This document shows, piece after piece, positions 362 through 17,989 of a stretch of 20,000 nt of DNA; positions within the stretch are counted from its first letter, which is position 1; every line of letters starts with the position of its first letter. The notes under the pieces are model-generated. The model saw only the letters and a program-made list of their open reading frames with translations. It was not told where the DNA came from and did no database searches. A program made the translations under genes and the position numbers. The stretch is taken from positions 109,917-129,916 of IMG/VR virus record IMGVR_UViG_3300003320_000087; one strand, written 5' to 3'. The stretch comes from an uncultured virus (IMG/VR IMGVR_UViG_3300003320_000087). Its lineage: Duplodnaviria > Heunggongvirae > Uroviricota > Caudoviricetes.

Positions 362-390
362 GAGAGGGGTTGACAGCTCCTCTCAAGCTA
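362..390 (+). repeat. hairpin-AAGCT element 1
   Basis: GAGAGGGG-TTGACAG-CTCCTCTC-AAGCTA. Confidence 0.75.
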
Positions 391-398
391 GTTAGAAT
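370..398 (+). promoter_or_regulatory. sigma70/HrdB-type promoter embedded in hairpin element
   Basis: TTGACA-17-TAGAAT. Confidence 0.75.
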
Positions 399-458
399 AG
401 AAAAAGAATAAAACAACTTATAGCAAAGATATAGAATCAAAGAGAATAGATAATAATT

Positions 459-647
459 ATGACTATTTCGCTAGTGGTTCTCTTCGGCATCGCCCTTGTG
501 GTGTGTATTCTGAAGGACAATATGGGTAAGCTCCACGCGTTCATCGCTGTGATGTTCGGGCTTTACCTTGGTTCTACTGGAGTTGGACCTTCTCTCAAGG
601 AGGGGACTGAGAATTTCCTCCATTGGCTGAGTCAGATTCAATTCTGA
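459..647 (+). CDS. small membrane protein
   Basis: 62 aa with two hydrophobic segments; resembles small Streptomyces membrane proteins (from recall). Confidence 0.75.
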   Translation: MTISLVVLFGIALVVCILKDNMGKLHAFIAVMFGLYLGSTGVGPSLKEGTENFLHWLSQIQF

Positions 648-653
648 TTTGGC

Positions 654-680
654 GGGGTTTCGTAAAGAGACCCCAAGCTT
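654..680 (+). repeat. hairpin-AAGCTT element 2
   Basis: GGGGTTTC-GTAAA-GAGACCCC-AAGCTT. Confidence 0.85.
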
Positions 681-702
681 TGTCTACATAAGGAGAGATA
701 TA

Positions 703-1356
703 ATGCGCGAGTACCCTAAGATTGATAATCTGTACAAGCGTAATCCTGAGAAGAAGTCAGAGCTTCTTGTCGGTACATATACCCGGCCGGAATTTTCTCT
801 GATTGATGCTTGGGATGTTACGGAGAAGGTTGACGGTACAAACGTTCAGCTGAAGTTCCACAGGGTTTTTAACGGCTCGTTTGATATTAATGGGCGTACC
901 GAGCGCGCGCAGTTTACCATTGGCCAGGAGAATTTTCTTGAGGAGCTTGGTGACAGCATTCGCGGTAAGGTTCTTCACACCATTAATGCATTCAACCTTG
1001 ATACGCTGACCATCTATGGTGAGCTATATGGCCCAAGGATTCAGTCTGGTGGGAATTATTCTACTGAGCTTGGATTCCGGGCATTTGACATGATGGTGAA
1101 TGACAAGGTATGGTTGGCACCTGAGGATGTTCGTAAGAACGCCGAGTACTTTGGTGTTGAGCAGGTTCCTAACCTGGGGACAATGACTACTGAGAGTATC
1201 TTTCTGATGGTTGCCGGGGGATTTAAGTCCACCTTTGCAATCAATGAAGATTATGATGCAGAAGGTGTTATTGCAAAGCCGCCGTGGAATCTGTATGACC
1301 AGCGTGGAGAGCGGGTTATGTTTAAGCTCAAGACGTGCGATTTGAAGCATCTGTAA
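703..1356 (+). CDS. RNA ligase (Rnl2-like adenylyltransferase domain)
   Basis: Ligase motifs I TEKVDGTN, III YGELYG, IIIa FRAFD, IV EGVIAK, V FKLK; RBS AAGGAGA before ATG 703. Confidence 0.88.
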   Translation: MREYPKIDNLYKRNPEKKSELLVGTYTRPEFSLIDAWDVTEKVDGTNVQLKFHRVFNGSFDINGRTERAQFTIGQENFLEELGDSIRGKVLHTINAFNLDTLTIYGELYGPRIQSGGNYSTELGFRAFDMMVNDKVWLAPEDVRKNAEYFGVEQVPNLGTMTTESIFLMVAGGFKSTFAINEDYDAEGVIAKPPWNLYDQRGERVMFKLKTCDLKHL

Positions 1357-1362
1357 AGATGC

Positions 1363-1388
1363 GGCCAGATGAAAATCTGGCCAAGCTT
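1363..1388 (+). repeat. hairpin-AAGCTT element 3
   Basis: GGCCAGAT-GAAA-ATCTGGCC-AAGCTT. Confidence 0.9.
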
Positions 1389-1413
1389 TTTCCCCTTTCG
1401 TAAAGGACATATA

Positions 1414-2181
1414 ATGACAAGAATTCTTATTGGTTCTCAGGCAATGAAGTTCTGGTTTGGGGAGCATTTCCCAAGAACGCCTAGCGATACAGATTGCTTT
1501 TCGGATGAATTTATTCCAAATGTTGAGTCATTCTGGCATCCGAAGCTTTCTGAATATGAATGGAAGTTTGGGATTGTTGCTTCCATTGAAGAGCTATACA
1601 CCATCAAAGTTTCCCATGCTTTTTGGTTTCATGGTGACCGCAAGTGGTGGAAGCATATGTACGATGTGAAGTTCCTTCAGGACAAGGGGTACGACCATCT
1701 TGTTCCTGAGCTGTATGATATTCTGTATAGTATTTGGGTTGAGCGTCATGGAAAGAAGAAGGCGTTTCTTAACGTACCCGCCGATGAATTTTTCAATCCA
1801 AATGTGGACCGGATTTATGAGCATGACAGCATTCATCAGTCTATTGCCTATTATGATGAACCGCTATTCAGCAGAATTTTGCGGGACGGGCATGAAGTTA
1901 TGGTAGATGAATCAAAGTTCTGGTCTCTCTCACAAGAGGATAGGTTCAAGCTTGTCCGTGAAGAGGTGTACGCAACGGCTCTAGAACGAATTCTCATCCC
2001 CAGCAATTATGTGAAGAGTCCTAGAGGCGCCTACAATTGGGCAATGCGGAAGACAATTACTGACTTCTCAAAGGGTTGGTTTCCCAAGTTCATCGTGCTA
2101 CACTGGAATGAGCTGTACCGGCCGGATGTTGATTACTTGAAGATTCATCTGAATAATAAGGATAAGTTGATAACGCTATGA
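1414..2181 (+). CDS. phage protein with N-terminal nucleotidyltransferase-like motif
   Basis: ILIGSQA...PSDTD matches the hG[GS]...DxD Pol-beta NTase signature; also YEHDSIH; RBS AAAGGA before ATG 1414. Confidence 0.65.
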   Translation: MTRILIGSQAMKFWFGEHFPRTPSDTDCFSDEFIPNVESFWHPKLSEYEWKFGIVASIEELYTIKVSHAFWFHGDRKWWKHMYDVKFLQDKGYDHLVPELYDILYSIWVERHGKKKAFLNVPADEFFNPNVDRIYEHDSIHQSIAYYDEPLFSRILRDGHEVMVDESKFWSLSQEDRFKLVREEVYATALERILIPSNYVKSPRGAYNWAMRKTITDFSKGWFPKFIVLHWNELYRPDVDYLKIHLNNKDKLITL

Positions 2182-2513
2182 ATGATTTTGTAACTGAATT
2201 TGAACAGTATCTTGCCAAGAATTGGGAGTTTAAGTTCAGGTATGGTACCTTCCATGGAACCTTTGGATTTTATCAGGTTCTTTGGTCCGGTGATGCTATT
2301 GAGCTGAATACCCTATATGGTAAGGCTAAGGTTGTTGAGCGTTCTACTGACTATGCAGATGGTCAGGAAGAACGAACCATGGTTGTTAAGATTGGTGACC
2401 GATTCGTAAAGAAGGTTGGTTACTACGACTCATGGGACAGTTCAGATTGGGATGGCTCTATTACTGAGGTAAAGCCTGTAGACAGGATTGTCACGGTTTA
2501 TGAGCCAGTCTGA
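2178..2513 (+). CDS. acidic hypothetical protein, paralog 1 of 3
   Basis: C-terminal GYYDSWDSSDWDGSITEVKP..VTVY motif; ATGA overlap with upstream gene. Confidence 0.8.
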   Translation: MNDFVTEFEQYLAKNWEFKFRYGTFHGTFGFYQVLWSGDAIELNTLYGKAKVVERSTDYADGQEERTMVVKIGDRFVKKVGYYDSWDSSDWDGSITEVKPVDRIVTVYEPV

Positions 2514-2519
2514 TATCCC

Positions 2520-2539
2520 GCCCCGAAAGGGGCAAGCTT
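2520..2539 (+). repeat. hairpin-AAGCTT element 4
   Basis: GCCCC-GAAA-GGGGC-AAGCTT. Confidence 0.9.
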
Positions 2540-2556
2540 TCTGATTGGAGAATAAC

Positions 2557-2871
2557 ATGACTAAGTTCAGTGCTGCTCAGGTTGAGGCGGCTATTGAGGA
2601 AGAGTTTGACGGTTATCCCGAAGAATTCTATGGTGAGGTTGGCACGGATGGCTACGAATTGACCATGCTTGATGGTGCAGTGGCTTATGGTGTTGCCCGT
2701 GAAGGTGGTTATGAAGGCGGCGGGGATTACATGGATGTAGTCTTTCGAATTGGACAACAGTTTTTCCGTAAGCAGGGAACACACAACTCTTGGGATGCTA
2801 GCTATTGGGATGGCACTCTCGAAGAGGTTGAGCCTTATCAAGAGACTGTTACAAAGTACCGGGCGGTTTAA
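2557..2871 (+). CDS. acidic hypothetical protein, paralog 2 of 3
   Basis: GTHNSWDASYWDGTLEEVEP..VTKY; RBS GGAG before ATG 2557. Confidence 0.8.
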   Translation: MTKFSAAQVEAAIEEEFDGYPEEFYGEVGTDGYELTMLDGAVAYGVAREGGYEGGGDYMDVVFRIGQQFFRKQGTHNSWDASYWDGTLEEVEPYQETVTKYRAV

Positions 2872-3170
2872 TGTATACTAAGAATCAAATTCAAGATGCA
2901 ATTCTTGAAGACTATGATGGCGATTGGTCAGAGTTCCTTTACATGGTGAATGACAGTCATGATGAAGAGGCAGAGCTTCCGTCACTTGGTGTAAAGGCAA
3001 TTGGTGTTGAAAATGGCGGAGAAAAGTATCTCTGGGAAGTTTTCAAGGTTGGTGACCAGTATTTCCGCATGAACGGCACTCATGATTCTTATGAGGGTTC
3101 TATGTGGGATGGAGAGCTTGAAGAGGTTGAGCCCTTCAAGAAGACTGTGGTAGACTATCGTTCTAAGTGA
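2871..3170 (+). CDS. acidic hypothetical protein, paralog 3 of 3
   Basis: GTHDSYEGSMWDGELEEVEP..VVDY; TAATG coupling to upstream gene. Confidence 0.8.
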   Translation: MYTKNQIQDAILEDYDGDWSEFLYMVNDSHDEEAELPSLGVKAIGVENGGEKYLWEVFKVGDQYFRMNGTHDSYEGSMWDGELEEVEPFKKTVVDYRSK

Positions 3171-3177
3171 CGGTGCT

Positions 3178-3197
3178 GCGGGGCAACCCGCAAGCTT
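3178..3197 (+). repeat. hairpin-AAGCTT element 5
   Basis: GCGGG-GCAA-CCCGC-AAGCTT. Confidence 0.9.
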
Positions 3198-3206
3198 GGA
3201 GGTATT

Positions 3207-3401
3207 ATGAAGTTCAAGTATAGAATTTGGGTTACAGAGCGTGAGCGCGGTTGGGGTGAATCTTGCTGGACTGAAGACTTTGATACACCAGAAGAGGCCC
3301 AGGAAAGAATTAACAAAATTAATGAACGTAATAAGCCTGGTCCTGTTCCAGATTACTATATTCAGGCAGACAATGAAATTCGCGCTGTTCGAGTAGCTTG
3401 A
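3207..3401 (+). CDS. hypothetical protein
   Basis: 64 aa ORF, RBS GGAGGT. Confidence 0.8.
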   Translation: MKFKYRIWVTERERGWGESCWTEDFDTPEEAQERINKINERNKPGPVPDYYIQADNEIRAVRVA

Positions 3402-3427
3402 CATCTGATATGAAGGGTTGGTAATAT
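3398..3427 (+). promoter_or_regulatory. HrdB-type promoter (probable leaderless transcript)
   Basis: TTGACA-18-TAATAT with ATG 6 nt after the -10. Confidence 0.65.
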
Positions 3428-3433
3428 CTGACC

Positions 3434-3610
3434 ATGAGATATGAAGTTCGAGAAGATGTAGACCGATACAACAAGCCTACGGGACAGTGGGCTATTTGGG
3501 ATACACATGAAGGCAAGGCGACAGCCCGGTTTAGTGAAAAGGCCAGGGCTGAAGAGATTGTCGATAAGTACTATGCCGCACAATTCGCGGCTGAATCTGC
3601 TGCGGAGTAA
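3434..3610 (+). CDS. hypothetical protein (MRYEVREDVD..., 58 aa; not in ORF track)
   Basis: Translated manually; fills the gap between genes on the coding strand. Confidence 0.7.
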   Translation: MRYEVREDVDRYNKPTGQWAIWDTHEGKATARFSEKARAEEIVDKYYAAQFAAESAAE

Positions 3611-3612
3611 AC

Positions 3613-3999
3613 GTGTCTGTTGAGTTTAACACCTTTTGTGCTGTTGGGGATAAGGAAATTCCTGCTAAGCTTTTCTATAGCAGTGATGACCCTGCTGTAC
3701 TTGAATTCACATTCTATAATACTGGTAAGACCACAACATCCGCCCGGTGGATTTTTGCCCGGGATTTGATTCATGATGCATTCAATTCAGAATGCGGAGA
3801 ATCAGGGATTGGTGATATCAGGGTAGAAGCAGACAATGAATCCGTTTTGTTCTGGATTACCTCAAATGACGGAGATGCTTTGGCTACATTTGAGCGGGCG
3901 GTCATTGATGAGTTTATGGAATGTGTATATGATGAAGTTCCCGAAGGAGAAGACCACTACGAAATCCCGGATGAATTTCCTGAGGAATGGCTAGTGTAA
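3613..3999 (+). CDS. SsgA-family sporulation/cell-division regulator (SALP)
   Basis: Motifs YxxxDP, WIFARDL, GxGDIRV, VPEGE in SsgA-family order and spacing; GTG start. Confidence 0.85.
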   Translation: MSVEFNTFCAVGDKEIPAKLFYSSDDPAVLEFTFYNTGKTTTSARWIFARDLIHDAFNSECGESGIGDIRVEADNESVLFWITSNDGDALATFERAVIDEFMECVYDEVPEGEDHYEIPDEFPEEWLV

Positions 4000-4032
4000 A
4001 ACTCTTGAGGTACAATAGACTCAGGAGGCAAT

Positions 4033-4185
4033 ATGGAAGGTGAGCTAATTTCCGTGGACCAGGTATGGTTTGGAATTCGAGAACCAGAATGGTGGCCGGA
4101 AGACGAAGAAGATTTTGAAGAAAGACTTTTTGTGCCAAAAAAGGTGACCTTTCGTAAAGAGCTAAAAATTCGGCGCAAAAATTAG
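4033..4185 (+). CDS. small hypothetical protein (MEGELISVDQ..., 50 aa; not in ORF track)
   Basis: RBS AGGAGG; translated manually. Confidence 0.6.
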   Translation: MEGELISVDQVWFGIREPEWWPEDEEDFEERLFVPKKVTFRKELKIRRKN

Positions 4186-4207
4186 ACCTTTCGTAAAGGG
4201 CCTATTT

Positions 4208-4228
4208 GCCCCATTCAGGGGCAAGCTT
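4208..4228 (+). repeat. hairpin-AAGCTT element 6
   Basis: GCCCC-ATTCA-GGGGC-AAGCTT. Confidence 0.85.
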
Positions 4229-4285
4229 GAATGTATATATGAACACGCATGCGTGATACCATACTTCGGTTGAGGAATCAAGAGG

Positions 4286-4314
4286 TTGACATCTTCCCTC
4301 TGCTCCCGTAGTGT
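4286..4314 (+). promoter_or_regulatory. HrdB-type promoter
   Basis: TTGACA-17-TAGTGT. Confidence 0.7.
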
Positions 4315-4351
4315 CTGACCCATCGAAGCAACCCGCCCAAAAAATTGGGGG

Positions 4352-4380
4352 TTGACAGCAAGAGACAAGACAGCTAAAGT
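4352..4380 (+). promoter_or_regulatory. HrdB-type promoter
   Basis: TTGACA-17-TAAAGT. Confidence 0.7.
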
Positions 4381-4409
4381 AGGACTCAAGAAACCAACAG
4401 GAGGTCAAA

Positions 4410-4763
4410 ATGAAGGTGTCCGTTCGATTCAACAAGAGCACGGTTAAGAAGACCTCTCGCTCTAAGGTTGGCGGGATTGTTGTCAAGCGTCTCGGCAAGG
4501 TTCGTGACACCCACGTTGCCGGAACTGTTGTGCTTAAGAAGGTGCATTTTGGCCGGACTCTCCTTGGTGAGGTGATTGAGGAGACCGACAACATCTTGAC
4601 CCCCCGTGCTGAGGATGGTATGTTTTCTCGTGCGGTGAAGAACTGGAATCGTGCTCGGTTCATCGGCTCTCTTGGTGGATACTACAACACCAGGACTGGT
4701 GAGCGTGTGATGGATGCCGAGTATGTTTACATGGCTGGTTCTGACATTTACTACACTGACTGA
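4410..4763 (+). CDS. basic hypothetical protein
   Basis: 117 aa ORF, RBS AGGAGG. Confidence 0.85.
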   Translation: MKVSVRFNKSTVKKTSRSKVGGIVVKRLGKVRDTHVAGTVVLKKVHFGRTLLGEVIEETDNILTPRAEDGMFSRAVKNWNRARFIGSLGGYYNTRTGERVMDAEYVYMAGSDIYYTD

Positions 4764-4777
4764 AAAGGAATAGTTAA

Positions 4778-5359
4778 ATGGCTACGGAGCGTGAATACCT
4801 TATTAGCATCGGTCTCGCTAAGGAAGGACGCGGGCGGTTTTCTTCTGAAGCTAAGGCTGCTTTGGAAAAGGCTAAGTCTGAGGGTATGGTTTTTGACCTG
4901 ACCCCGGCTGAAATTGCTAAGCTGGAAAGGCAGAATAGGACAAAGAGGGTCAAGGAAGTTTCTCCTAAGCCTGTGAGTGTCCGTCGCCCCACTCAGGATG
5001 AATACGACGTCAAGGCTGTTCGTGCATGGGGTGAGCAGACTGGGGCTATCGAAAAGGGAAAGCGCGGTAAGCTTTCTACAGCTCTTATCAACGCCTACCT
5101 TGCATCTAACAAGGTTGAAAAGAAGGTGGCCGTTAAGAAGTCTGCTGTAAAGAGGTCTATTGTCAGGTCTGAGACGGTTGGTTATACTTTTGCCAAGCGT
5201 AAGGATACTGACCCGGCATTCATTTCGGAGCCGCTGGTTGCCGTGATGACTTGCGGGAAGTGCTCTCGTGGGGTATCCTACTGTGGATGCCAGGATGGTC
5301 CGGTTGCCCCAAGTTATCTTGGTGGTCAGCCTCTGATGTTGACCCGCCCGGTTAAGTAG
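4778..5359 (+). CDS. Lsr2-like DNA-binding domain protein with C-terminal Cys cluster
   Basis: KAVRAWGEQTGAIEKGKRGKLSTALINAY resembles the Lsr2 C-terminal domain; N-terminal GRGRFS; C-terminal CGKC...CGC. Confidence 0.7.
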   Translation: MATEREYLISIGLAKEGRGRFSSEAKAALEKAKSEGMVFDLTPAEIAKLERQNRTKRVKEVSPKPVSVRRPTQDEYDVKAVRAWGEQTGAIEKGKRGKLSTALINAYLASNKVEKKVAVKKSAVKRSIVRSETVGYTFAKRKDTDPAFISEPLVAVMTCGKCSRGVSYCGCQDGPVAPSYLGGQPLMLTRPVK

Positions 5360-5368
5360 GGTAACGTT

Positions 5369-5395
5369 GTTGGGGAGGATAAACCTCCCCAACTG
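5369..5395 (+). other. intergenic hairpin (variant of the AAGCTT element)
   Basis: GTTGGGGAGG-ATAAA-CCTCCCCAAC, followed by TGAGAGG RBS. Confidence 0.55.
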
Positions 5396-5405
5396 AGAGG
5401 AAAAA

Positions 5406-5732
5406 ATGTACGGAGACAATTCATATCGGCCGGATTATCCTGGTGCTAGGCTGACGAATCACCAGCACCGTGGAAATAGGCGCGATAATGCTGCGATTAA
5501 CAAGCTTCTTGACTCCATTACCAATGTGGATAGCAATGTCATTCAGTTGGCTAATGCTATGGTAAATACTGCTAGTCCAGGAGTTCGCGGTAGGCTTATG
5601 GATTTGGCAATTGCCATTATCTTTGCCGAAGCAGATGCATACGTTTATCAGAATGATGATTCTGATGGACCGAAGAACGCCATGGTTTTGGTTGACACTA
5701 TGAACCAGTTTGGCATCCAACTGAAGCCTTGA
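5406..5732 (+). CDS. hypothetical protein
   Basis: 108 aa ORF, RBS GAGG. Confidence 0.8.
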   Translation: MYGDNSYRPDYPGARLTNHQHRGNRRDNAAINKLLDSITNVDSNVIQLANAMVNTASPGVRGRLMDLAIAIIFAEADAYVYQNDDSDGPKNAMVLVDTMNQFGIQLKP

Positions 5733-5757
5733 CAGGCACCGAAGCACCTGCTAGTCT
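5729..5757 (+). promoter_or_regulatory. HrdB-type promoter
   Basis: TTGACA-17-TAGTCT. Confidence 0.72.
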
Positions 5758-5795
5758 TTAATCAATCAAGCAAGACAAACCGAGGAGAAAAAATC

Positions 5796-6819: not shown

Positions 6820-6857
6820 GAGGGGCTATCTCATAAACGGGATAGCCCCTCAAGCTT
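6820..6857 (+). repeat. hairpin-AAGCTT element 7
   Basis: GAGGGGCTATCTC-ATAAAC-GGGATAGCCCCTC-AAGCTT. Confidence 0.9.
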
Positions 6858-7058: not shown

Positions 7059-7080
7059 GGGGAAGTAATTCCCCAAGCTT
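7059..7080 (+). repeat. hairpin-AAGCTT element 8
   Basis: GGGGAA-GTAA-TTCCCC-AAGCTT. Confidence 0.9.
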
Positions 7081-7958: not shown

Positions 7959-7995
7959 GGTGGGGCTTGACAGCCTCACCAAGCTTAGGTAGGGT
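7959..7995 (+). repeat. hairpin-AAGCTT element 9 with embedded promoter
   Basis: GGTGGGGCT-TGAC-AGCCTCACC-AAGCTT; TTGACA(7967)-17-TAGGGT. Confidence 0.85.
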
Positions 7996-8701: not shown

Positions 8702-8734
8702 GGGGCGGATTTATTTACAATCCGCCCCAAGCTT
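8702..8734 (+). repeat. hairpin-AAGCTT element 10
   Basis: GGGGCGGATT-TATTTAC-AATCCGCCCC-AAGCTT. Confidence 0.9.
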
Positions 8735-8866: not shown

Positions 8867-8899
8867 GGGGTTGACGTTCAACCCCAAGCTTGTTAGACT
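8867..8899 (+). repeat. hairpin-AAGCTT element 11 with embedded promoter
   Basis: GGGGTTGA-CGT-TCAACCCC-AAGCTT; TTGACG-17-TAGACT. Confidence 0.85.
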
Positions 8900-9908: not shown

Positions 9909-9941
9909 GCGGGGTGTTTTCCCTTGACACCCCGCAAGCTA
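9909..9941 (+). repeat. hairpin-AAGCT element 12
   Basis: GCGGGGTGTT...GACACCCCGC-AAGCT-ATG. Confidence 0.75.
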
Positions 9942-10406: not shown

Positions 10407-10426
10407 GGCCCGAAAGGGCCAAGCTT
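10407..10426 (+). repeat. hairpin-AAGCTT element 13
   Basis: GGCCC-GAAA-GGGCC-AAGCTT. Confidence 0.9.
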
Positions 10427-10683: not shown

Positions 10684-10705
10684 GCCCCGGAAACGGGGCA
10701 AGCTT
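10684..10705 (+). repeat. hairpin-AAGCTT element 14
   Basis: GCCCCG-GAAA-CGGGGC-AAGCTT. Confidence 0.9.
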
Positions 10706-10906: not shown

Positions 10907-10931
10907 GCCCGGCTTTATGTCGGGCAAGCTT
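10907..10931 (+). repeat. hairpin-AAGCTT element 15
   Basis: GCCCGGC-TTTAT-GTCGGGC-AAGCTT. Confidence 0.88.
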
Positions 10932-10973: not shown

Positions 10974-11126
10974 ATGAAGATATGGGTTATTACGACAGAG
11001 TGCGCTTGTGGATGGTACTCTGGAGAAGAAATCGCTGGAGCCTACAGCACTGAAGAAAAGGCTAAGGAAGCCTTGAAGGAATTCAACGGAGAATTCTATT
11101 ACATCAGTGAACTGGAGGTAAAGTGA
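10974..11126 (+). CDS. small protein, STEEKAK paralog A (50 aa; not in ORF track)
   Basis: RBS AGGAGG; MKIWVITTECACG...AYSTEEKAKE. Confidence 0.75.
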   Translation: MKIWVITTECACGWYSGEEIAGAYSTEEKAKEALKEFNGEFYYISELEVK

Positions 11127-11269
11127 AGGTTTGGCTGGTAAGTGAAGGTAATTGCAACTGCTGCATGTATGTTGCGGCTGTCTTTTCAACAGAAGAGAAG
11201 GCTAAGGCTTACGAAACTGACAGCGAATTCGTAGAAATTAACTTTCACATTGTAGATGAAGGGGAATAA
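11123..11269 (+). CDS. small protein, STEEKAK paralog B (48 aa; not in ORF track)
   Basis: GTGA overlap, RBS GGAGGT; MKVWLVSEGNCNCC...VFSTEEKAKA. Confidence 0.7.
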   Translation: MKVWLVSEGNCNCCMYVAAVFSTEEKAKAYETDSEFVEINFHIVDEGE

Positions 11270-11855: not shown

Positions 11856-11883
11856 GATGGGGTGGAAACACCCCATCAAGCTT
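11856..11883 (+). repeat. hairpin-AAGCTT element 16
   Basis: GATGGGGTG-GAAA-CACCCCATC-AAGCTT. Confidence 0.9.
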
Positions 11884-12206: not shown

Positions 12207-12230
12207 GCCCAATGAAAATTGGGCAAGCTT
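12207..12230 (+). repeat. hairpin-AAGCTT element 17
   Basis: GCCCAAT-GAAA-ATTGGGC-AAGCTT. Confidence 0.9.
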
Positions 12231-12249
12231 TCTAACAACAGGAGATATA

Positions 12250-12486
12250 ATGTCTGTACAGACAACTCGAAAGACCATCTGTGATAGATGTGGTAACGAA
12301 GTTCATGCTGAATACTGGGAAATCAGAATTGGTAAGCTAAAGTGGAAGCGATATAAGAAGACGCATATTGGGCGGCTGTCTTGGATGAAGCTGCAAAATG
12401 GCAGTGGTTCGATGCTGTGTGATATGGAGCTGGACCTTTGTGTTGACTGTTCAGAATTGTTTCATGTATTTATGAGCAATAAGTAA
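12250..12486 (+). CDS. small Zn-finger-like protein
   Basis: CDRC...DLCVDC; RBS AGGAG. Confidence 0.8.
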   Translation: MSVQTTRKTICDRCGNEVHAEYWEIRIGKLKWKRYKKTHIGRLSWMKLQNGSGSMLCDMELDLCVDCSELFHVFMSNK

Positions 12487-12493
12487 ATTAAAA

Positions 12494-12511
12494 GCCCTTC
12501 GGGGCAAGCTT
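12494..12511 (+). repeat. hairpin-AAGCTT element 18
   Basis: GCCC-TTCG-GGGC-AAGCTT. Confidence 0.88.
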
Positions 12512-12561
12512 GACACAACACACAGTACAAAGATTGTCTGTGTAGCTCTGTGGGAGGATAA

Positions 12562-12744
12562 ATGAACGTAGCACGAGAGTTGAGGCGGAGGGAACATTCT
12601 AGGCCCGGACATAAGCTCAGAGACGCTACGGATGAGGTGACCAGGAAGAACGTTGACGTGACAACCCGCCGTTTTTACCGCTGCTCATGTAGTTGGTTCG
12701 GATGGTTGACAGTCATCGATGATGAGACTAGAGTGAAGCCATGA
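12562..12744 (+). CDS. hypothetical protein
   Basis: RBS GGAGG; 60 aa. Confidence 0.75.
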   Translation: MNVARELRRREHSRPGHKLRDATDEVTRKNVDVTTRRFYRCSCSWFGWLTVIDDETRVKP

Positions 12745-13055
12745 AGATTTGGCTTGATGACGAGAGAGACCCGCAAGATTGGGTGGACAATCCGAAGTCT
12801 TGGTTTTGGGTCAAGAACAGTTACGATGCAATTGAGCTTCTTGACGACATTCGTCGCAAGGGTAATTCAATTGATGTCATGTCGTTCGACCATGACTTGG
12901 GTGGTGACGACACATCTCGCCGTGTGGTATTGTGGATGTGCGAAAACGATTTCTGGCCGGATGAGTGTCGAGTGCATTCAATGAACAATGTTGGCCGTGA
13001 ATGGCTTATTGGTATGATTGACCGATATGGACCGGGAGTTTCCTATGCACTTTAA
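12741..13055 (+). CDS. cyclic-phosphate-processing receiver-domain protein
   Basis: KIWLDDERxP, SFDHDLG, HSMNxVG motifs typical of this phage receiver-like family. Confidence 0.8.
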   Translation: MKIWLDDERDPQDWVDNPKSWFWVKNSYDAIELLDDIRRKGNSIDVMSFDHDLGGDDTSRRVVLWMCENDFWPDECRVHSMNNVGREWLIGMIDRYGPGVSYAL

Positions 13056-13407
13056 GCAAATCTGCAAGTGTGGTATCGTGGAGTTCGAGTGCCGTTGTTC
13101 TGCCGAGAATAAGAGGGTTGACACGCTTATGACGTGCTCTCATGAGTGGTGGGAAGACATCATCACTGAGCTTGATGAGCAGTATGATATTGCCGCTTAT
13201 TGGGATAAGCGTCACAGGTATCTGGAAATTGACCTTCCGGCTTCCCGGCACAGCCTTGAGGTTTCGCTGACCAATGTTTATGGTTTCGTTATCTCACTGG
13301 TGATTACCAACGAAACCGGCGGGGTCATGAAGGACATAACCATATTTTCTTGCGTCAATCGAAAGAACCTTGCCACCGACATTCACAGCGTGTACAATAG
13401 CTACTGA
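13045..13407 (+). CDS. hypothetical protein with Cys-rich N terminus
   Basis: In frame with ORF 13018; GGGAG precedes ATG 13045; start uncertain. Confidence 0.7.
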   Translation: MHFKQICKCGIVEFECRCSAENKRVDTLMTCSHEWWEDIITELDEQYDIAAYWDKRHRYLEIDLPASRHSLEVSLTNVYGFVISLVITNETGGVMKDITIFSCVNRKNLATDIHSVYNSY

Positions 13408-13416
13408 AGAGGGATT

Positions 13417-13608
13417 ATGACACACGATACAGAATTCCCATCTAATTGGGATATGATGACCAGTGCTGAAAGGACTGCTTGGTTAGCTAAGTGGTTCGAT
13501 GCTAACGTAAGTAAGCATCAGAACATTGGGAACATGAAGCGTGCAAAGGCAGAACGTGAATGGAGGGCTTACCGCACTAAGAACGGTAGGGGTAAGCGCA
13601 GGAAGTAG
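13417..13608 (+). CDS. hypothetical protein
   Basis: 63 aa, RBS GAGG. Confidence 0.75.
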   Translation: MTHDTEFPSNWDMMTSAERTAWLAKWFDANVSKHQNIGNMKRAKAEREWRAYRTKNGRGKRRK

Positions 13609-13721
13609 TGCCAAGTTGTCCAAGATGCAGGAAAAGCGATAAGGTACAAAAATCAAAGTCTAGGTCCATTTTAATCAAATTCATCTGTAAGAGATGCAAT
13701 CACGAATTTGAGGCGCCTTGA
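13608..13721 (+). CDS. tiny zinc-ribbon protein (37 aa; not in ORF track)
   Basis: GTG overlapping the upstream stop; CPRC...CKRC. Confidence 0.55.
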   Translation: MPSCPRCRKSDKVQKSKSRSILIKFICKRCNHEFEAP

Positions 13722-13727
13722 TTTTGC

Positions 13728-13754
13728 GGGGGTGGGCTTTCCACCCCCAAGCTT
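13728..13754 (+). repeat. hairpin-AAGCTT element 19
   Basis: GGGGGTGG-GCTTT-CCACCCCC-AAGCTT. Confidence 0.9.
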
Positions 13755-13772
13755 GTCTACATAGGAGAAAAA

Positions 13773-13964
13773 ATGATTTCCCGTAATGGATGTATTGCTT
13801 TTGCATGTGGAGCTTTTCTACTTGCCTTCGTGAATTTTATCGCGGGATTGGGTGCTGTTGTTACTCATGACCCGTTGTGGCTTGTGGGAGTAAAGTTTGC
13901 AAGTGCAGCGATTTGGTTTGCATGTTGTGCGGTGTGGGTTGTTGGAGCCATTACCCGCGAGTAA
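13773..13964 (+). CDS. small membrane protein
   Basis: RBS AGGAG; two hydrophobic segments. Confidence 0.8.
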   Translation: MISRNGCIAFACGAFLLAFVNFIAGLGAVVTHDPLWLVGVKFASAAIWFACCAVWVVGAITRE

Positions 13965-13974
13965 CCTATTGACA

Positions 13975-13998
13975 GGCAGATGAAAGTCTGCCAAGCTA
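13975..13998 (+). repeat. hairpin-AAGCT element 20
   Basis: GGCAGAT-GAAA-GTCTGCC-AAGCTA, preceded by TTGACA. Confidence 0.8.
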
Positions 13999-14025
13999 GC
14001 ACTACCAACAGCAAGGAGGTAGGAG

Positions 14026-14466
14026 ATGCTGAACCAATATATTTGCCTAAATTGTTACAATGGCAATTGCGACGAGTGTGCTGATAAGCACAAGGTTTTC
14101 CCTGATTGTCAGCATGAATGTAACAGGCAGAAGGAAGAGGCTCGGAAGATGAACGTCCACAAGCTTGACGTAGTTGCCGAGAATGGTGTACCGTTCCGAG
14201 TGGTGGTGCTGGTTGACGGGAAGTCTGAGAATTTCAACACGGCTTCCTTGAGCAATAAGAGTCTGGTAGAGTTCTATGACAGGCGCTATGACTTCACCCC
14301 TGATGGTCAGTTTACCGGTCATCGTATCTACCTTGACACTGCTCTTGAAGCCTCTGTGTACACCATGAGCTTTGACCAGCCTTCTTGGCAGATGGACTCT
14401 CGTACTTCCCGAACGGTTCGCGATTGGTTGCACTTCCTGGTTGACAGGGAATCGGTTCGGGTGTAA
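14026..14466 (+). CDS. hypothetical protein with Cys-rich N terminus
   Basis: RBS AAGGAGGT; 146 aa. Confidence 0.75.
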   Translation: MLNQYICLNCYNGNCDECADKHKVFPDCQHECNRQKEEARKMNVHKLDVVAENGVPFRVVVLVDGKSENFNTASLSNKSLVEFYDRRYDFTPDGQFTGHRIYLDTALEASVYTMSFDQPSWQMDSRTSRTVRDWLHFLVDRESVRV

Positions 14467-14484
14467 GGTAGTAACACGTAAAAC

Positions 14485-14527
14485 GGTGGGGCAAGGTGAG
14501 ATAAGTTCCCCAAACTCCACCAAGCTT
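14485..14527 (+). repeat. hairpin-AAGCTT element 21 (imperfect long stem)
   Basis: GGTGGGG...CTCCACC-AAGCTT. Confidence 0.7.
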
Positions 14528-14533
14528 TCTAAA

Positions 14534-14910
14534 CTGCCGATGACCCCGGAATGAAAATTCCGGGCGAGGACAGCCCCAATAGCATAATCCCGGCGAATGC
14601 GCCTTTAGAATAGTAGGAGATAGCAGGTTCAAATCCTGCTGGGGTTGCTAGGACAAATCTTCTGTTAGATTGTGTCCTAAGTAAAATGACCGGCTAGCTC
14701 GTGTGCAGGAACGCTAAGGGTGCTTTCGCGGGGATTCAGTTAGAATCCCACCGAACGTTTAAAGGTCCTGTTCCTGTACTAGGCGAGGGTTAATGGGCTT
14801 AGTAGGAAATCCCCGAAAAGTCACTGATAACAATTACCGGGTAGCCCAGTTAAATAGCGAGGTGGAGACGAAAGTCGTAGAAGCCAATGACCTATTTAAC
14901 TGGGCTTTTT
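14534..14910 (+). ncRNA. structured RNA cluster (two kink-turn hairpins, tRNA-like element, multibranch domain)
   Basis: No credible ORF; many long helices; ends in a 15-bp stem plus T run. Confidence 0.55.
14572..14647 (+). tRNA. tRNA-like element with aberrant anticodon arm (identity undetermined)
   Basis: Acceptor AGCCCCA/TGGGGTT, D arm GCAT..GG..ATGC, T arm GCAGG-TTCAAAT-CCTGC; anticodon arm pairs only CCT/AGG; no encoded CCA. Confidence 0.6.
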
Positions 14911-14944
14911 GTTTGACCAAAATCGTCTGAAGGAGACAGTAAAC

Positions 14945-15133
14945 ATGATGATTCCCGCTCCCCGTGTTGCTGAGCCTACCGTATTGAAGTGCCGTGAGGA
15001 TGGCTGTGAAGGCACTTATGAGCCGTACCGAGATGGTTCGCTGTCCTGTTACTGCGGCAGCCGCTCTAACCTCACTGTGGACGATGTAGAGATTCTGAAC
15101 ATGACCATTGTGTATGAGCGTAGCGACTGCTAA
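14945..15133 (+). CDS. small Cys-containing protein
   Basis: RBS AAGGAG before ATG 14945. Confidence 0.7.
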   Translation: MMIPAPRVAEPTVLKCREDGCEGTYEPYRDGSLSCYCGSRSNLTVDDVEILNMTIVYERSDC

Positions 15134-15140
15134 GATTTAT

Positions 15141-15168
15141 GCTGGGGATGAAAATCTCCAGCAAGCTT
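15141..15168 (+). repeat. hairpin-AAGCTT element 22
   Basis: GCTGGGGAT-GAAA-ATCTCCAGC-AAGCTT. Confidence 0.9.
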
Positions 15169-15199
15169 GCAACATCGACATTCTAATTAAGGAAACAAA

Positions 15200-15412
15200 A
15201 TGGTGTTTTTCGTTCTGCTCCTGGTTCTCGGTTCGGCTTGGGTTATTTCTGCCTGGTCTTTCATGCTGTTCGTTGGTATGGTTCATCATGACATTCTTCC
15301 GGCCGTGATTCCCATTTCGTATCAGACTTCTCTTCAGATTACTGGTGTGATGCTTGCGTTCACCTTTGGCTTTGCTCTTCTTTCTGGAATTCTTCGAGAG
15401 GCTGCAAAGTAG
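15200..15412 (+). CDS. membrane protein
   Basis: RBS AAGGA; two hydrophobic segments. Confidence 0.8.
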   Translation: MVFFVLLLVLGSAWVISAWSFMLFVGMVHHDILPAVIPISYQTSLQITGVMLAFTFGFALLSGILREAAK

Positions 15413-15418
15413 TAATCC

Positions 15419-15443
15419 GGCCGGATTTATTCCGGCCAAGCTT
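15419..15443 (+). repeat. hairpin-AAGCTT element 23
   Basis: GGCCGGA-TTTAT-TCCGGCC-AAGCTT. Confidence 0.9.
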
Positions 15444-15469
15444 TCAACAACAAATGTGAGGTAAATTAA

Positions 15470-15844
15470 ATGCTATTCAGTGATGCACAGAGCCTCAATG
15501 AGGGCGACGAGATGTTCGTTACCGATGGTGTTGGTCGTGCTACTCATCAGGTGGTTACCAAGCTGAGTGGCCCATACTACAATGGATTCTCAAGCCACGG
15601 TGTCCTTGTTGTCAGGGATGAGAGCAACCAGGTTCGGGTCTACAACCTTGGTGACCTAGTGATAAAGCCTGCTGTGCCTGTTGAGGGACAAACGTGGGTT
15701 CGTAAGACTGATGGTAAGAGCCGATATGTTGCTGGTGTGACAGACAATTTTGTCATCGTAAAGCAGAGTGCCGGGGCTTCTAATGCCAGGGCATATGTGG
15801 TTGAGATGAGCCTGTTTCTGACTACGTATCGTAAGTACAGTTAG
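15470..15844 (+). CDS. hypothetical protein
   Basis: 124 aa, RBS GAGGT. Confidence 0.8.
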   Translation: MLFSDAQSLNEGDEMFVTDGVGRATHQVVTKLSGPYYNGFSSHGVLVVRDESNQVRVYNLGDLVIKPAVPVEGQTWVRKTDGKSRYVAGVTDNFVIVKQSAGASNARAYVVEMSLFLTTYRKYS

Positions 15845-15851
15845 GATTGTC

Positions 15852-16325
15852 ATGATTGGCTGTGTTGAGGATGCCGAATTCATTGCAGAATGGGATTTTC
15901 GGCATCCTCTTCCAGATGGGTGGAGTTTTGCCGGTGAAGGCGCAACACGTGTTGCAGTGATAAGCCCGGATGGAATTGTCTATAAGGTAGAGCTTAGTCC
16001 AGATGGTTCTAATTCAAACGAATATATGAACATTCAGAGGATTAAAAAGCTGCCTCCCATTAAGGGATGGGAAATTGCGGATGCCTCCCTTTACATTCTA
16101 GATAACTTCAAATCAGTCATTGCTATGGAATACATTGAAGGCAGTGATGATATTGAATGCGGTTCGTATCTTGGACCAGAGTTTAAATGCACATGTAAAA
16201 TGAAGCCTTGTGTGGCTTATGTGTGGGAGGTCACCGCTAGACTGTGGGGTGTGTGGGACCTTACAAGTGATAACATCAGAGTGCAGCCTGATGGTACTCG
16301 GATTGTCATCGATGCAGTGTCTTGA
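15852..16325 (+). CDS. minimal protein-kinase-like fold protein
   Basis: GEGATR (Gly loop), VYK, NEY, AMEYIEG hinge, DLTSDNI catalytic loop, VIDA. Confidence 0.65.
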   Translation: MIGCVEDAEFIAEWDFRHPLPDGWSFAGEGATRVAVISPDGIVYKVELSPDGSNSNEYMNIQRIKKLPPIKGWEIADASLYILDNFKSVIAMEYIEGSDDIECGSYLGPEFKCTCKMKPCVAYVWEVTARLWGVWDLTSDNIRVQPDGTRIVIDAVS

Positions 16326-16332
16326 CTGACCA

Positions 16333-16360
16333 GCCCAGTCTTGATAGACTGGGCAAGCTT
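16333..16360 (+). repeat. hairpin-AAGCTT element 24
   Basis: GCCCAGTCT-TGAT-AGACTGGGC-AAGCTT. Confidence 0.9.
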
Positions 16361-16392
16361 CAGAAGGAACCATATCCTTTAAGGAAGAGAGT

Positions 16393-16632
16393 ATGGGAAC
16401 GAAGATTCGGCACGTGACGGTAATGATTGGTAAGGTTGAGTCAGTACCATCGTCACGTTTTGCCAAGCGAATTTGTCCGGCATGCAAGACTGAGCGTTTC
16501 ATTACTCAGCGCAGTAAGTTTCTCAAGCATAATAATGGCGAAAAGGAATGCCGTGCTGTTGGCCTGACAATTGACCAGTACAATAAGCTTAACGAAGAGC
16601 TGATTGCAGCTCGTAAGGCAACTTTCAAGTAA
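16393..16632 (+). CDS. hypothetical protein with CxxC
   Basis: RBS AAGGA; CPAC...H...C. Confidence 0.75.
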   Translation: MGTKIRHVTVMIGKVESVPSSRFAKRICPACKTERFITQRSKFLKHNNGEKECRAVGLTIDQYNKLNEELIAARKATFK

Positions 16633-16642
16633 GGATATGCAT

Positions 16643-16789
16643 ATGGCTAAGGTTGTTCGTCGTCAGCAGACTCGCAAGATTCAGACTCCTCGGAGTAAGA
16701 AGACTCGCGACTATCGCAACGGCAATGACTTTTCCAATTTCAAGGGTCCTAGGTATTCTCGTAAGGATAAGTATCCTGTAGCATACTGA
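16643..16789 (+). CDS. small basic protein
   Basis: RBS AAGGA; MAKVVRRQQ... Confidence 0.7.
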   Translation: MAKVVRRQQTRKIQTPRSKKTRDYRNGNDFSNFKGPRYSRKDKYPVAY

Positions 16790-16796
16790 CTAATTC

Positions 16797-16828
16797 GCCC
16801 GGCTGTGATAAAATGGCCGGGTAAGCTT
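16797..16828 (+). repeat. hairpin-AAGCTT element 25
   Basis: GCCCGGCTGT-GATAAA-ATGGCCGGGT-AAGCTT. Confidence 0.85.
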
Positions 16829-16850
16829 CCGACAAACAATGGAGAATAAA

Positions 16851-17000
16851 ATGAGTGAGTTTGACAAGAGCGTGGATGAGCTTTTTGACACTGCTGCTCG
16901 ATGGAGTAAGGGAATTGTAGTAGCGTCTGTCGTTCTGGCCCTGGGGGTCCTGAGCGTTGTTCTTTGGGCCATTATTTCTCTGGTCCTTCACTTCACGTGA
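16851..17000 (+). CDS. small single-pass membrane protein (49 aa; not in ORF track)
   Basis: RBS GGAG; MSEFDKSVDE..., hydrophobic C terminus. Confidence 0.75.
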   Translation: MSEFDKSVDELFDTAARWSKGIVVASVVLALGVLSVVLWAIISLVLHFT

Positions 17001-17006
17001 AATTTC

Positions 17007-17032
17007 GGCGGGTTGAAAAATCCGCCAAGCTT
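17007..17032 (+). repeat. hairpin-AAGCTT element 26
   Basis: GGCGGGTT-GAAA-AATCCGCC-AAGCTT. Confidence 0.9.
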
Positions 17033-17136
17033 TAACACCATCGTAAGGAGGCAATGTGTACTGCCATTGTGGTAGACCATATCCATGCCTTGACCATTAA
17101 TCAACGAGTCCTCCAGAATATATTCTAGGGATAAAG

Positions 17137-17508
17137 ATGAAGCTTTTCAGTAAGTCAAGAGGAATTCCTGACGTTCGTAAGCCTGATTATGATTTCATCC
17201 GGGATGCTGAAAAGGAATTCCGGATGGATGACGATGGTTTTGACGAACGAATGGATGAGGCAATCCTTGAGAATTCAGATTTCAAGGAAGTCAATTACTA
17301 CAACATGGACATTGATGAACTTGATAAGTTCATCGACAAGTGTCGGGACCTTGGTTCAGAACTGAATTCAATAAAGTATAAGGATGAACTCCTTGACTTT
17401 ATCGAAAGAATGGAAAGGCGAAGGTTCCGTCTCTCTCGTCGTGACTGGGACCAACGTCATTACGATTTGCGAAACAAGATGGTGGAGCGAGGGAAGCGCT
17501 CAAACTGA
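17137..17508 (+). CDS. hypothetical protein
   Basis: 123 aa ORF on the coding strand. Confidence 0.75.
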   Translation: MKLFSKSRGIPDVRKPDYDFIRDAEKEFRMDDDGFDERMDEAILENSDFKEVNYYNMDIDELDKFIDKCRDLGSELNSIKYKDELLDFIERMERRRFRLSRRDWDQRHYDLRNKMVERGKRSN

Positions 17509-17514
17509 ATTAAC

Positions 17515-17542
17515 GGCGGGTTAGAAATAACCCGCCAAGCTG
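17515..17542 (+). repeat. hairpin-AAGCT element 27
   Basis: GGCGGGTTA-GAAA-TAACCCGCC-AAGCTG. Confidence 0.85.
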
Positions 17543-17579
17543 CAACACCAAAATAAATAATAAACCGTTAGGAATAAAA

Positions 17580-17954
17580 ATGAACCGTCGTATTACGGCT
17601 GCTGTTGTCTCTGCTGTTGCTGTCTCTGTGGTGGCTACGGGTTGTTCTGCCTCTCCTGGTCACTCTGTCAGCCGCGCGGGAATTGTGGTGGACCGCGATA
17701 TTGAAGGGCATGGCTATGAACTGGAGACCAAGAACAGTTCTGGCAAGCACGAGTTTAGTGTGAGCGCCAAGGTTTATCACGATTGCCAGAAGCGCGAATA
17801 CTACCCCTCTTGCATTAAGAGCAGCAAGAAGGACAGCGATAACCGCAAGAGCTACAAGAAGTCGAAGAAGAAGCGCTCTTGGTCTTGGACTAAGAAGAAC
17901 AAGTCTAAGAAGTCTTCTAAGGGATTTAGCTTTAAGCGGAGTAAGAGGCGCTAA
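17580..17954 (+). CDS. putative lipoprotein with Lys/Ser-rich tail
   Basis: MNRR + hydrophobic stretch + ATGC lipobox. Confidence 0.75.
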   Translation: MNRRITAAVVSAVAVSVVATGCSASPGHSVSRAGIVVDRDIEGHGYELETKNSSGKHEFSVSAKVYHDCQKREYYPSCIKSSKKDSDNRKSYKKSKKKRSWSWTKKNKSKKSSKGFSFKRSKRR

Positions 17955-17963
17955 GTAAAACCC

Positions 17964-17989
17964 GGGCGAAAGAAATTTCGCCCAAGCTT
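17964..17989 (+). repeat. hairpin-AAGCTT element 28
   Basis: GGGCGAAA-GAAA-TTTCGCCC-AAGCTT. Confidence 0.9.

Follow-up and report, generated by a model that had tools for sequence, protein, structure and literature searches.

The small genes in the right arm of a 129.9-kb Streptomyces siphovirus are separated by a short hairpin that runs, without any spacing, into the sequence AAGCU (AAGCT in DNA). This hairpin + AAGCU element is a previously undescribed punctuation mark closing most small early genes of the Loccivirinae (cluster BE2), the subfamily of Stanwilliamsviridae to which the nearest named kin of the virus belong. The stretch of DNA analyzed here, called the window, is 20,000 nucleotides long and corresponds to positions 109917-129916, the last 20 kb, of the 129,916-bp virus record IMGVR_UViG_3300003320_000087, whose genome has 45% G+C. 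A preliminary description of the window, made from the letters alone, had listed 28 elements with zero-spacing tails. All 28 were confirmed. The feature is genuine and far from random, and it is conserved throughout the subfamily. The closest named match of the window is Faust, with 77% identity across 35% of the window, followed by Sham, TunaTartare, Gilson, and others. A second IMG/VR record, G001 (98,783 bp), is 99.7-99.99% identical to this genome over most of the length.

AAGCTT is found 39 times in the window, while 7.29 +/- 2.56 copies are expected, and none of 200 shuffles reached 39. In the whole genome there are 93 copies, against 37 of the reversed control word. At all 28 listed starts the stem is flush with AAGCT (24 AAGCTT, 3 AAGCTA, and 1 AAGCTG), and the other 15 AAGCTT of the window lie inside open reading frames (ORFs) without a hairpin. 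The first 20 elements were folded separately as RNA. Each of the 20 formed one hairpin with the AAGCU tail unpaired, at minimum free energies of -8 to -26 kcal/mol. The sole gathering-level match of Rfam over the window was a tRNA at 14573-14646, and no element matched any family.

The association was also observed when hairpins were chosen without regard to their tails. Perfect hairpins were picked first from the whole 129,916-bp genome on both strands, and the tails were read afterwards. Among 383 hairpins on the + strand, 34 are followed by AAGCT and 12 by AGCTT, the first A being paired in the latter. Among 277 hairpins on the - strand, no tail pentamer occurs more than three times, and AAGCT is not among them. 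In a tolerant energy scan, a flush structure of -9 kcal/mol or below was found at 75 of 193 AAGCT on the + strand, compared with 50 of 400 random positions and 19 of 215 AAGCT on the - strand. Half of the hairpins just behind called stop codons in the genome carry AAGCT (41 of 82). The total number of elements in the genome, which comes from our own scans and depends on the threshold, is 40 by the strict definition and ~40-60 overall, all on the + strand. Their density is high from ~74 kb to the genome end (74-130 kb) and low in the structural module. In Faust, all annotated genes in the region matching the window are on the + strand.

The anatomy was determined from 111 elements pooled across this genome, 48.3 kb of Gilson, and 23.8 kb of Faust. 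Hairpin length ranges from 12 to 37 nt, and pairing is almost perfect. Stems had been noted to start with G. The foot is a G-C pair in 106 of the 111 elements, and the fixed unit is G...C-AAGCU. The stems contain 782 Watson-Crick pairs, 46 G.U pairs, no A.C pair, and one other mismatch, in agreement with the G-T mismatches seen earlier on the + strand. The enrichment of GNRA and UUCG loops also holds, as 64 of the 111 loops are tetraloops, including 26 GAAA, 13 UUCG, and 35 GNRA in all. The tail has the form AAGCUU(Y/G)N, with AAG at its first three positions and 2-3 U per 8 nt. The commonest tails are AAGCTTCC (19 elements), AAGCTTTC (11), and AAGCTTGT (11). U occupies position 6 in about 85% of elements. 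The core is the non-palindromic AAGCT, and the proposal that the HindIII palindrome is the selected unit is not upheld.

By our own rough gene calls, 25 of the 28 window hairpins begin 3-12 nt past a stop codon, 17 of them exactly 6-7 nt past it, and the distance is 6-7 nt in 24 of the 35 genome elements lying within 20 nt of a called stop. A start codon led by a Shine-Dalgarno sequence (SD) lies 10-54 nt past AAGCT in most window elements. The elements are thus placed after a stop and before a ribosome binding site, as the preliminary description had stated. For 11 of the 28 window elements, no more than 23 nt separate AAGCT from the SD-led start, which leaves no room for a promoter. For example, the element at 3178..3197 has AAGCTTGGAGGTATTATG at 3192, where AAGCTT abuts the SD GGAGG and the start follows 10 nt downstream. 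The element at 7059..7080 (AAGCTT) also has a start 10 nt downstream, and the element at 2520..2539 (GCCCC-GAAA-GGGGC + AAGCTT) has a start codon 18 nt downstream. Genes behind the 11 elements need either read-through or processed RNA.

A promoter is embedded in 3 of the 28 window elements, with TTGACN in the loop, a 17-nt spacer, and TAnnnT 3-4 nt past AAGCT. The element at 362..390 consists of the hairpin 362-384 and AAGCTA and contains a sigma70-like promoter (TTGACA in the loop, 17 nt, TAGAAT). The elements at 7959..7986 and 8867..8891, both with AAGCTT, contain TTGACA-17-TAGGGT and TTGACG-17-TAGACT, respectively, the latter with TG ahead of the -10. The same layout was observed in Faust, Gilson, and G001, and at genome position 104281. 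RNA that begins at an embedded promoter includes neither the hairpin nor the tail, so the element belongs to the RNA arriving from upstream. The window as a whole has no excess of promoter-like sites (35 against 26.7 +/- 5.5). A role as a general promoter element was rejected, since the distance from AAGCT to the -10-like hexamer varies from 7 to 14 nt and many elements abut the SD.

All elements of the window are on the + strand. The element at 1363..1388 has a GAAA loop on an 8-bp stem followed by AAGCTT, and that at 6820..6857, behind the DUF932 gene, has a 13-bp stem and AAGCTT. AAGCTA tails are found at 9909..9941 and at 13975..13998, where TTGACA lies immediately 5' of the hairpin. The element at 14485..14527 is an irregular 37-nt hairpin with AAGCTT. 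Elements with AAGCTT tails are also present at 4208..4228, 10407..10426, 11856..11883, 13728..13754, 15141..15168, 15419..15443, 16333..16360, and 17007..17032. The last element of the array is at 17964..17989 (AAGCTT). The gene array is closed at 18553..18584 (+) by a canonical terminator-like hairpin with TTTTCT, which belongs to the other class.

A second strand-specific motif, TTCGTAAAG, is found in 9 copies on the + strand and none on the - strand of this genome. In Gilson it is found in 8 and 1 copies, respectively. The sites are 659, 1397, 2403, 4151, and 4190 in the window and 86051, 89730, 104532, and 106738 in the genome. In most cases the motif sits at the apex of a hairpin (..CCTTTCGTAAAGG..). 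At times it lies inside an AAGCT element, alone, or ahead of one. In the element at 654..680 it occupies the loop of the hairpin, which is followed by AAGCTT.

Comparison with G001 revealed selection on pairing. Thirty-six orthologous elements were paired by their flanks only, and 262 stem pairs were compared. Of these, 258 are unchanged, and 4 have changed on both sides with pairing kept. No pair is changed on one side only, and none is broken. The compensatory changes include G-C to A-T in the element at 10684..10705 and A-T to G-C in G001 in the element at 12207..12230. A run variant of the element at 8702..8734 (10-bp stem and AAGCTT), present in the population, has two further compensatory pairs. 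Syntenic elements in Faust (15) and Gilson (9) have mostly different stems and the same tail; both sides were pre-selected as hairpins, which keeps broken pairs from showing up, and this comparison serves as illustration. Selection thus acts on the structure and not on the sequence of the stem. The earlier observation that stem sequences differ while pairing is retained is borne out by all four changed pairs.

The element is restricted to one lineage. The preliminary description had suggested a scan of the whole genome and of related phages, and the elements were detected genome-wide, in Faust, and in Gilson. In the hairpin scan of Faust, 34 and 8 of 491 hairpins carry AAGCT and (A)AGCTT tails, respectively, and in Gilson 29 and 18 of 413. 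IMG/VR matches with the full grammar (stop, hairpin, AAGCTT, SD, ATG) were records of Loccivirinae size and G001. That pattern scan used a single stem family (GCCCC...GGGGC), and most single matches elsewhere resemble chance. No such element was found in 48.7 kb of Samisti12, a member of the sister subfamily Boydwoodruffvirinae (BE1), which infects S. griseus like many BE2 phages. The intergenic hairpins of Samisti12 are ordinary A-tract/U-tract terminators. About seven canonical U-tract terminators are also present in this genome, at the ends of units (14557, 22219, 78305, 92365, 104526, 108745, and 128469, the last being window position 18553). The coexistence with canonical terminators and the lack of the element in Samisti12 indicate that the AAGCU class is neither the plain look of a Streptomyces terminator nor a host requirement.

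AAGCT is avoided in the sense strand of genes. Inside 125 ORFs it was observed 72 times, while 107 were expected by synonymous-codon shuffling (z = -5.5), which ranks it 26th among 1024 pentamers. For the reverse complement, AGCTT, there is no such deficit (103 observed, 109 expected, rank 440). The preliminary description had proposed that the signal is read as single-stranded + strand nucleic acid, most likely RNA. The strict + orientation, the G.U bias, the tetraloops, the compensatory changes, the spacing from the stop, and the sense-only avoidance all support this proposal. They point to an RNA-level intercistronic signal, not a plain terminator. Long transcripts must pass most of the elements, and thus the elements act within polycistronic mRNA.

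Candidate readers were sought with Pfam among 205 + strand ORFs of at least 45 aa; 8 + strand calls in a minus-strand block (~6-10.4 kb) were set aside. None of the 205 was an RNA polymerase, a sigma factor, or a recognizable endoribonuclease, which implies the use of host machinery, and none was a tyrosine/serine recombinase or transposase. The annotation of the minus-strand block in Faust consists of methylase, HNH/LAGLIDADG, ThyX, hydrolase, and hypothetical proteins, with no recombinase listed. Punctuation by tRNA-like structures was rejected, as the 3' trailers of the 29 + strand tRNA/tmRNA genes reported by ARAGORN never begin with AAGCT.

The elements also serve as recombination joints, a secondary role. 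There are seven collinearity breaks between this genome and G001, four of which touch an element with one edge or both. The first is a gene replacement, in which 99.7% identity stops exactly after AAGCTT at 10705, in the element at 10684..10705. A different small gene follows, and identity returns at the stop codon just upstream of the hairpin of the element at 10907..10931 (AAGCTT). The second is a one-gene indel. The cassette at 12231..12511 (+), absent from G001, consists of an SD, an ORFan at 12250-12486, the hairpin 12494-12505, and AAGCTT. Its left joint is the element at 12207..12230 (AAGCTT), and the joint lies inside GGGCAAGCTT, common to the flanking elements. The ORFan had no tblastn match among 50,697 phage records. 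At the third break, identity restarts exactly at the start of the hairpin at 17515, in the element at 17515..17542 (AAGCTG). Two run variants also restart there. At the fourth, an insertion in G001 starts with a promoter-type element. The other three breaks are away from elements.

Variant edges were also collected from DNA contigs of other runs (four runs). Among the 20 loose ends listed, out of 44, six lie within 10 nt of an element, at five distinct positions (355, 10705, 12515, 16796/7, and 17514), while elements with 10 nt on either side span ~7% of the window. The element at 16797..16828 has a G.U foot and AAGCTT, and a population variant departs exactly at its hairpin start. Faust and Sham (~78%) and Gilson and Comrade (~75-85%) are too diverged for exact joints, and their alignments cross the shared AAGCTT whatever the history of the locus. 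Because every gene has the same 7-10 bp (..GC AAGCTT) on either side, in direct orientation, genes are preferentially lost, gained, and replaced at the elements. A 10-bp microhomology suffices for the precise one-gene indel. Since elements fill most intergenic gaps and the edges of mosaic segments favor gene borders, the pattern indicates the use of elements as joints, not a dedicated recombination system.

Our tentative preference is that the elements are mRNA-level punctuation of early and accessory genes, with cleavage at AAG|CUU beside a 3' protective hairpin and possibly a leaky terminator function in addition. Host RNA polymerase would transcribe these genes from a few sigma-HrdB-type promoters as long polycistronic RNAs. 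Each cistron would end with the stop codon, ~6 nt, and the G-C-footed hairpin. The gap of ~6 nt, judged from the ribosome footprint, may be the shortest that lets the hairpin stay folded with a ribosome on the stop codon. The hairpin would be a 3' cap against 3'-5' exonucleases and is probably also a weak, leaky terminator. The single-stranded invariant tail would be the site of a sequence-specific event, most likely an endonucleolytic cut at AAG|CUU, for which the candidate enzymes are host RNase E, with its actinobacterial RR|CNU preference, and a phage factor. The predicted products are a hairpin-capped upstream cistron with an intact stop and an SD-led downstream cistron with a short leader. 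Where a new transcription unit starts, the promoter would be folded into the element: its -35 would occupy the loop, and its -10 would follow AAGCT after three nt.

The cut is proposed from the sense-only avoidance of AAGCT together with the match to the RNase E preference. In the available parts of PMC10641625 and PMC6448022, mycobacterial RNase E cuts RR|CNU in single-stranded RNA with C at +1 in ~90% of sites, and the sites are enriched in intergenic regions. AAG|CUU fits RR|CNU in the 24 of 28 window elements that have T at position 6, and this consensus, being mycobacterial, may not be that of Streptomyces. With this match, the processing role suggested in the preliminary description gains a concrete candidate reader in actinobacterial RNase E (PMC10641625, cited in part).

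Several observations weigh against this proposal. Cleavage at AAG|CUU is something that we purely infer. The RNase E preference is loose and AAGCU is nearly invariant, so that one degenerate host enzyme is no explanation; this difference leaves room for a lineage-specific protein reader. The BE1 phages manage without the element on the same hosts. In four window elements position 6 is A or G, and the U at +3 is therefore missing. The depletion of AAGCT in ORFs is moderate, about 2 standard deviations of the all-pentamer spread (standard deviation of z = 2.66), and other pentamers deviate more. The spacing between stop and hairpin depends on our own gene calls, which are rough. The three promoter-embedding elements look like terminator + promoter composites, which favors termination. 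Tails such as AAGCUUUC carry 3 U per 8 nt, a number that borders the 'U-rich' class of efficient terminators in S. clavuligerus, as far as the available part of PMC8269248 describes it.

It is possible, if somewhat unlikely, that the elements are leaky and perhaps factor-assisted intrinsic terminators or attenuators. The hairpin and a CAAGCUUYC tail would then impose a partial stop after each gene, with graded polarity, insulation where a promoter is embedded, and no cleavage. Stable GC-rich hairpins at gene ends and the pyrimidine-rich commonest tails are consistent with this. So is the overlap with a promoter (-35 in the loop, AAGCT, -10), found in three elements of the window and in several of Faust, Gilson, and G001; this order of terminator and then promoter resembles the promoter-early stem-loop (PeSL) of T4-type phages. 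Hairpins with few U in Streptomyces still mark transcript 3' ends, with more read-through (PMC8269248, cited in part). However, the tail opens with AAG instead of U, and the pentamer does not vary, as a degenerate U-tract would be expected to. Canonical U-tract terminators form a separate class in the same genome, and the BE1 sisters use only those. The genes behind 11 of the 28 elements have no possible promoter, and avoidance of bare AAGCT in the sense strand of ORFs is unexpected for a signal that depends on a hairpin. It is unlikely that the elements form a private RNA code, in which a reader of the G-C foot and AAGCU (a phage endoribonuclease or RNA-binding protein, or recruited host RNase E) would cut early RNAs into capped single-gene messages, and the same joints would trade promoterless cassettes without an integrase.

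It is quite unlikely that the elements are the binding site of a Loccivirinae-specific protein that recognizes the foot and single-stranded AAGCU during infection only. This protein would be either a dedicated endoribonuclease comparable to T4 RegB or Cas6 or a factor regulating termination, translation, or the stability of RNA. The near-invariant 7-nt unit of G-C foot and AAGCU would suit such a protein, and so would its occurrence in one subfamily, that is, in this phage, G001, Faust, Gilson, and other IMG/VR records of Loccivirinae size. Most right-arm ORFs have no Pfam family, leaving room for a new factor, and the phage encodes an RNA-end repair kit. Against this, the scanned ORFs offer no candidate protein, and a factor encoded by an early gene would have to act on its own transcript. 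A primary role at the DNA level is very improbable. The elements would be attC-like structure-specific joints, or microhomologies kept for cassette interchange, and any effect on RNA would be secondary. Four of the seven breaks against G001 have an edge at an element, six of the 20 listed loose ends lie within 10 nt of one, the cassette grammar resembles that of integron arrays, and the inserted gene is an ORFan. Indel and replacement joints at AAGCTT thus agree with the attC-like part of the preliminary description. Its dedicated machinery does not, as neither the scanned ORFs nor the Faust annotation of the minus-strand block includes a recombinase and microhomology is enough for the precise indel. 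Any mosaic phage has edges at gene borders, and elements occupy most intergenic gaps. A DNA-level role also leaves the RNA-type tetraloops, the G.U wobble, the fixed stop distance, and the sense-only ORF avoidance unexplained.

No description of the hairpin + AAGCU grammar was found in the literature, including the BE1 and BE2 announcements and the Loccivirinae preprint (without supplements). The earlier statement that no described system matches is fair for the exact grammar. There are close analogues, namely PeSL, U-less hairpin ends of actinobacteria, and intercistronic RNase sites. The element is best filed with known kinds, as intercistronic hairpin punctuation and PeSL-like cassettes, and its exact grammar is new. 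PeSLs of T4-type phages were reportedly described by Arbiol in 2010. PeSL is the closest described system: in the available part of PMC4122927 (Comeau 2014), small intergenic stem-loop cassettes recur from one small accessory gene to the next in a large lytic phage. They are concentrated in plastic non-structural regions, are rare among structural genes, and lie at indels and replacements between close kin (PMC4122927). The present elements have all these features in common with PeSL, and a subset of them is likewise a true composite of hairpin and promoter. In contrast, the defining feature of PeSL is a strong sigma70-like promoter located downstream of the stem-loop (PMC4122927), while only 3 of 28 elements here have a promoter, with the -35 inside the loop. 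PeSL stems are conserved by family (e.g., A3-4G3-loop-C3T3-4) and exchange occurs by homology of the whole cassette (PMC4122927). Here the stems are free, only G...C-AAGCU is fixed, and the host, phage family, and tail motif differ.

RNase III sites of T7 are long irregular duplexes cut within the stem, and T4 RegB cuts inside the SD (GGAG). The present elements share with these processing sites and those of RNase E a repeated intergenic signal in early polycistronic RNA and a single-stranded recognition sequence beside a capping hairpin. The sequence features of actinobacterial RNase E sites, single-stranded RR|CNU with C at +1, are found in the window elements that have U at position 6. RNase E sites are degenerate (PMC10641625 and PMC6448022, in part), whereas the tail here is nearly invariant and always flush with the stem, and its cleavage would be the shared property. 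Intrinsic terminators, either L-shaped with a U-tract or the U-less 'I-shaped' ones of GC-rich actinobacteria (PMC8269248, in part), share variable GC-rich stems and stable tetraloops behind stops, compensatory change that keeps the structure, and sense-strand orientation. Their tail is a U-tract or nothing, while the elements here have an invariant AAGCU and many of them must be read through. A U-tract directly after the hairpin, which marks the canonical L-shaped terminator, is not found in the elements. The I-shaped 3' ends have no fixed tail motif as described in the available part of PMC8269248. The elements also lack a U-tract but have a fixed tail.

Integron cassettes resemble the array in having an ORF, a variable one-strand hairpin, and a conserved core at the joint, and in being mostly promoterless, in one orientation, and often ORFan. 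The attC site has R''-L''/L'-R' boxes, extrahelical bases, a GTTRRRY core, and a length of 57-141 bp. The elements differ in their 12-37-nt hairpins without box pairs or extrahelical bases, their AAGCT core, the lack of an integrase among the scanned ORFs, and their RNA-type loop preferences and stop-codon spacing. REP/BIME consist of a family-conserved palindrome and a conserved flanking tetranucleotide and are associated with a RAYT transposase gene. This candidate was rejected, because stems differ between copies and between orthologues and the scanned ORFs include no transposase.

If the tail is a cleavage or stop signal, the element would be a small part of 12-30 nt that can be moved into Streptomyces operons to insulate or process them. 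Each genome would then also offer ~50 natural isogenic substrates for defining the recognition by actinobacterial RNase E or by a new phage RNase. Beside T4 PeSLs, the elements are a second independent case of regulatory punctuation doubling as a seam for accessory-gene shuffling, and the seam here needs only 7-10 conserved bases and no promoter. Should a private RNA code exist, it would represent an RNA-selected, integron-like cassette system in a lytic phage. For annotation, the motif very reliably marks gene ends and small ORFs in this subfamily.

The window genes that can be named are those for an RNA ligase, an SsgA-like protein, a protein with a weak Lsr2-like match, DUF932, an HNH endonuclease, NlpC/P60, and cREC_REC, and many of the others are ORFans. 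The RNA-end repair kit of the phage includes two RNA ligases (RNA_ligase and RNA_lig_T4_1), a PNK-like AAA_33 kinase, and cREC_REC, the 'cyclic-phosphate processing receiver' domain. These genes are located at 703-1353 and 12741-13052 in the window and at 86803-87846 and 89069-89503 in the genome. Ro60 and an Rv2179c-like 3'-5' exoribonuclease are also encoded elsewhere in the phage. The SsgA-like protein (window 3613-3996; PF04686, E 1e-14) belongs to a family tied to Streptomyces sporulation septation, and no relative was found when it was used as a query against genome contigs. Two adjoining small ORFs at 10974-11266 both match DUF7336 and represent a tandem duplicate. The tRNA detected by Rfam at 14573-14646 (+) has 31.7 bits, the gathering score being 29, and was not reported by ARAGORN. 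It sits between the element at 14485 and the next genes.

GATC is absent from the 129,916 bp of the genome, although ~488 copies are expected from base composition. It is also absent from four pieces of relatives (Faust, Gilson, and Samisti12; 22-49 kb each), and no words are more depleted in ORFs than the pentamers containing GATC. The pattern suggests that the family as a whole strongly avoids a GATC-specific restriction or methyl-dependent system. The record has no terminal repeat, and 79 bp in G001 (37243-37321) bridge its end and its start. Hence the assembly is either an opened circle or collapsed, and the record does not stop at the physical ends of the genome.

Behind the canonical terminator at 18553, a stretch of ~1.1 kb (18586-19663) is free of ORFs. 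It is the best conserved part of the window against distant relatives (about 80-87%; 86.6% to Faust). The only three exact copies of TGTGGATAA in the window (18619, 18631, and 18884) are in this stretch. On the opposite strand this sequence reads as the E. coli-type DnaA box. The stretch also has promoter-like sites of the TTGACA type. The stretch is a candidate origin or regulatory region, and an Rfam search of the non-coding 18400-19800 gave no match. Within it, a 40-nt piece (19228-19267) is matched by very deep contigs (~100-130x) of two root-metagenome runs, in which the phage depth is ~5-10x. These contigs diverge from the phage on both sides of the piece, which indicates a short sequence in common with something abundant.

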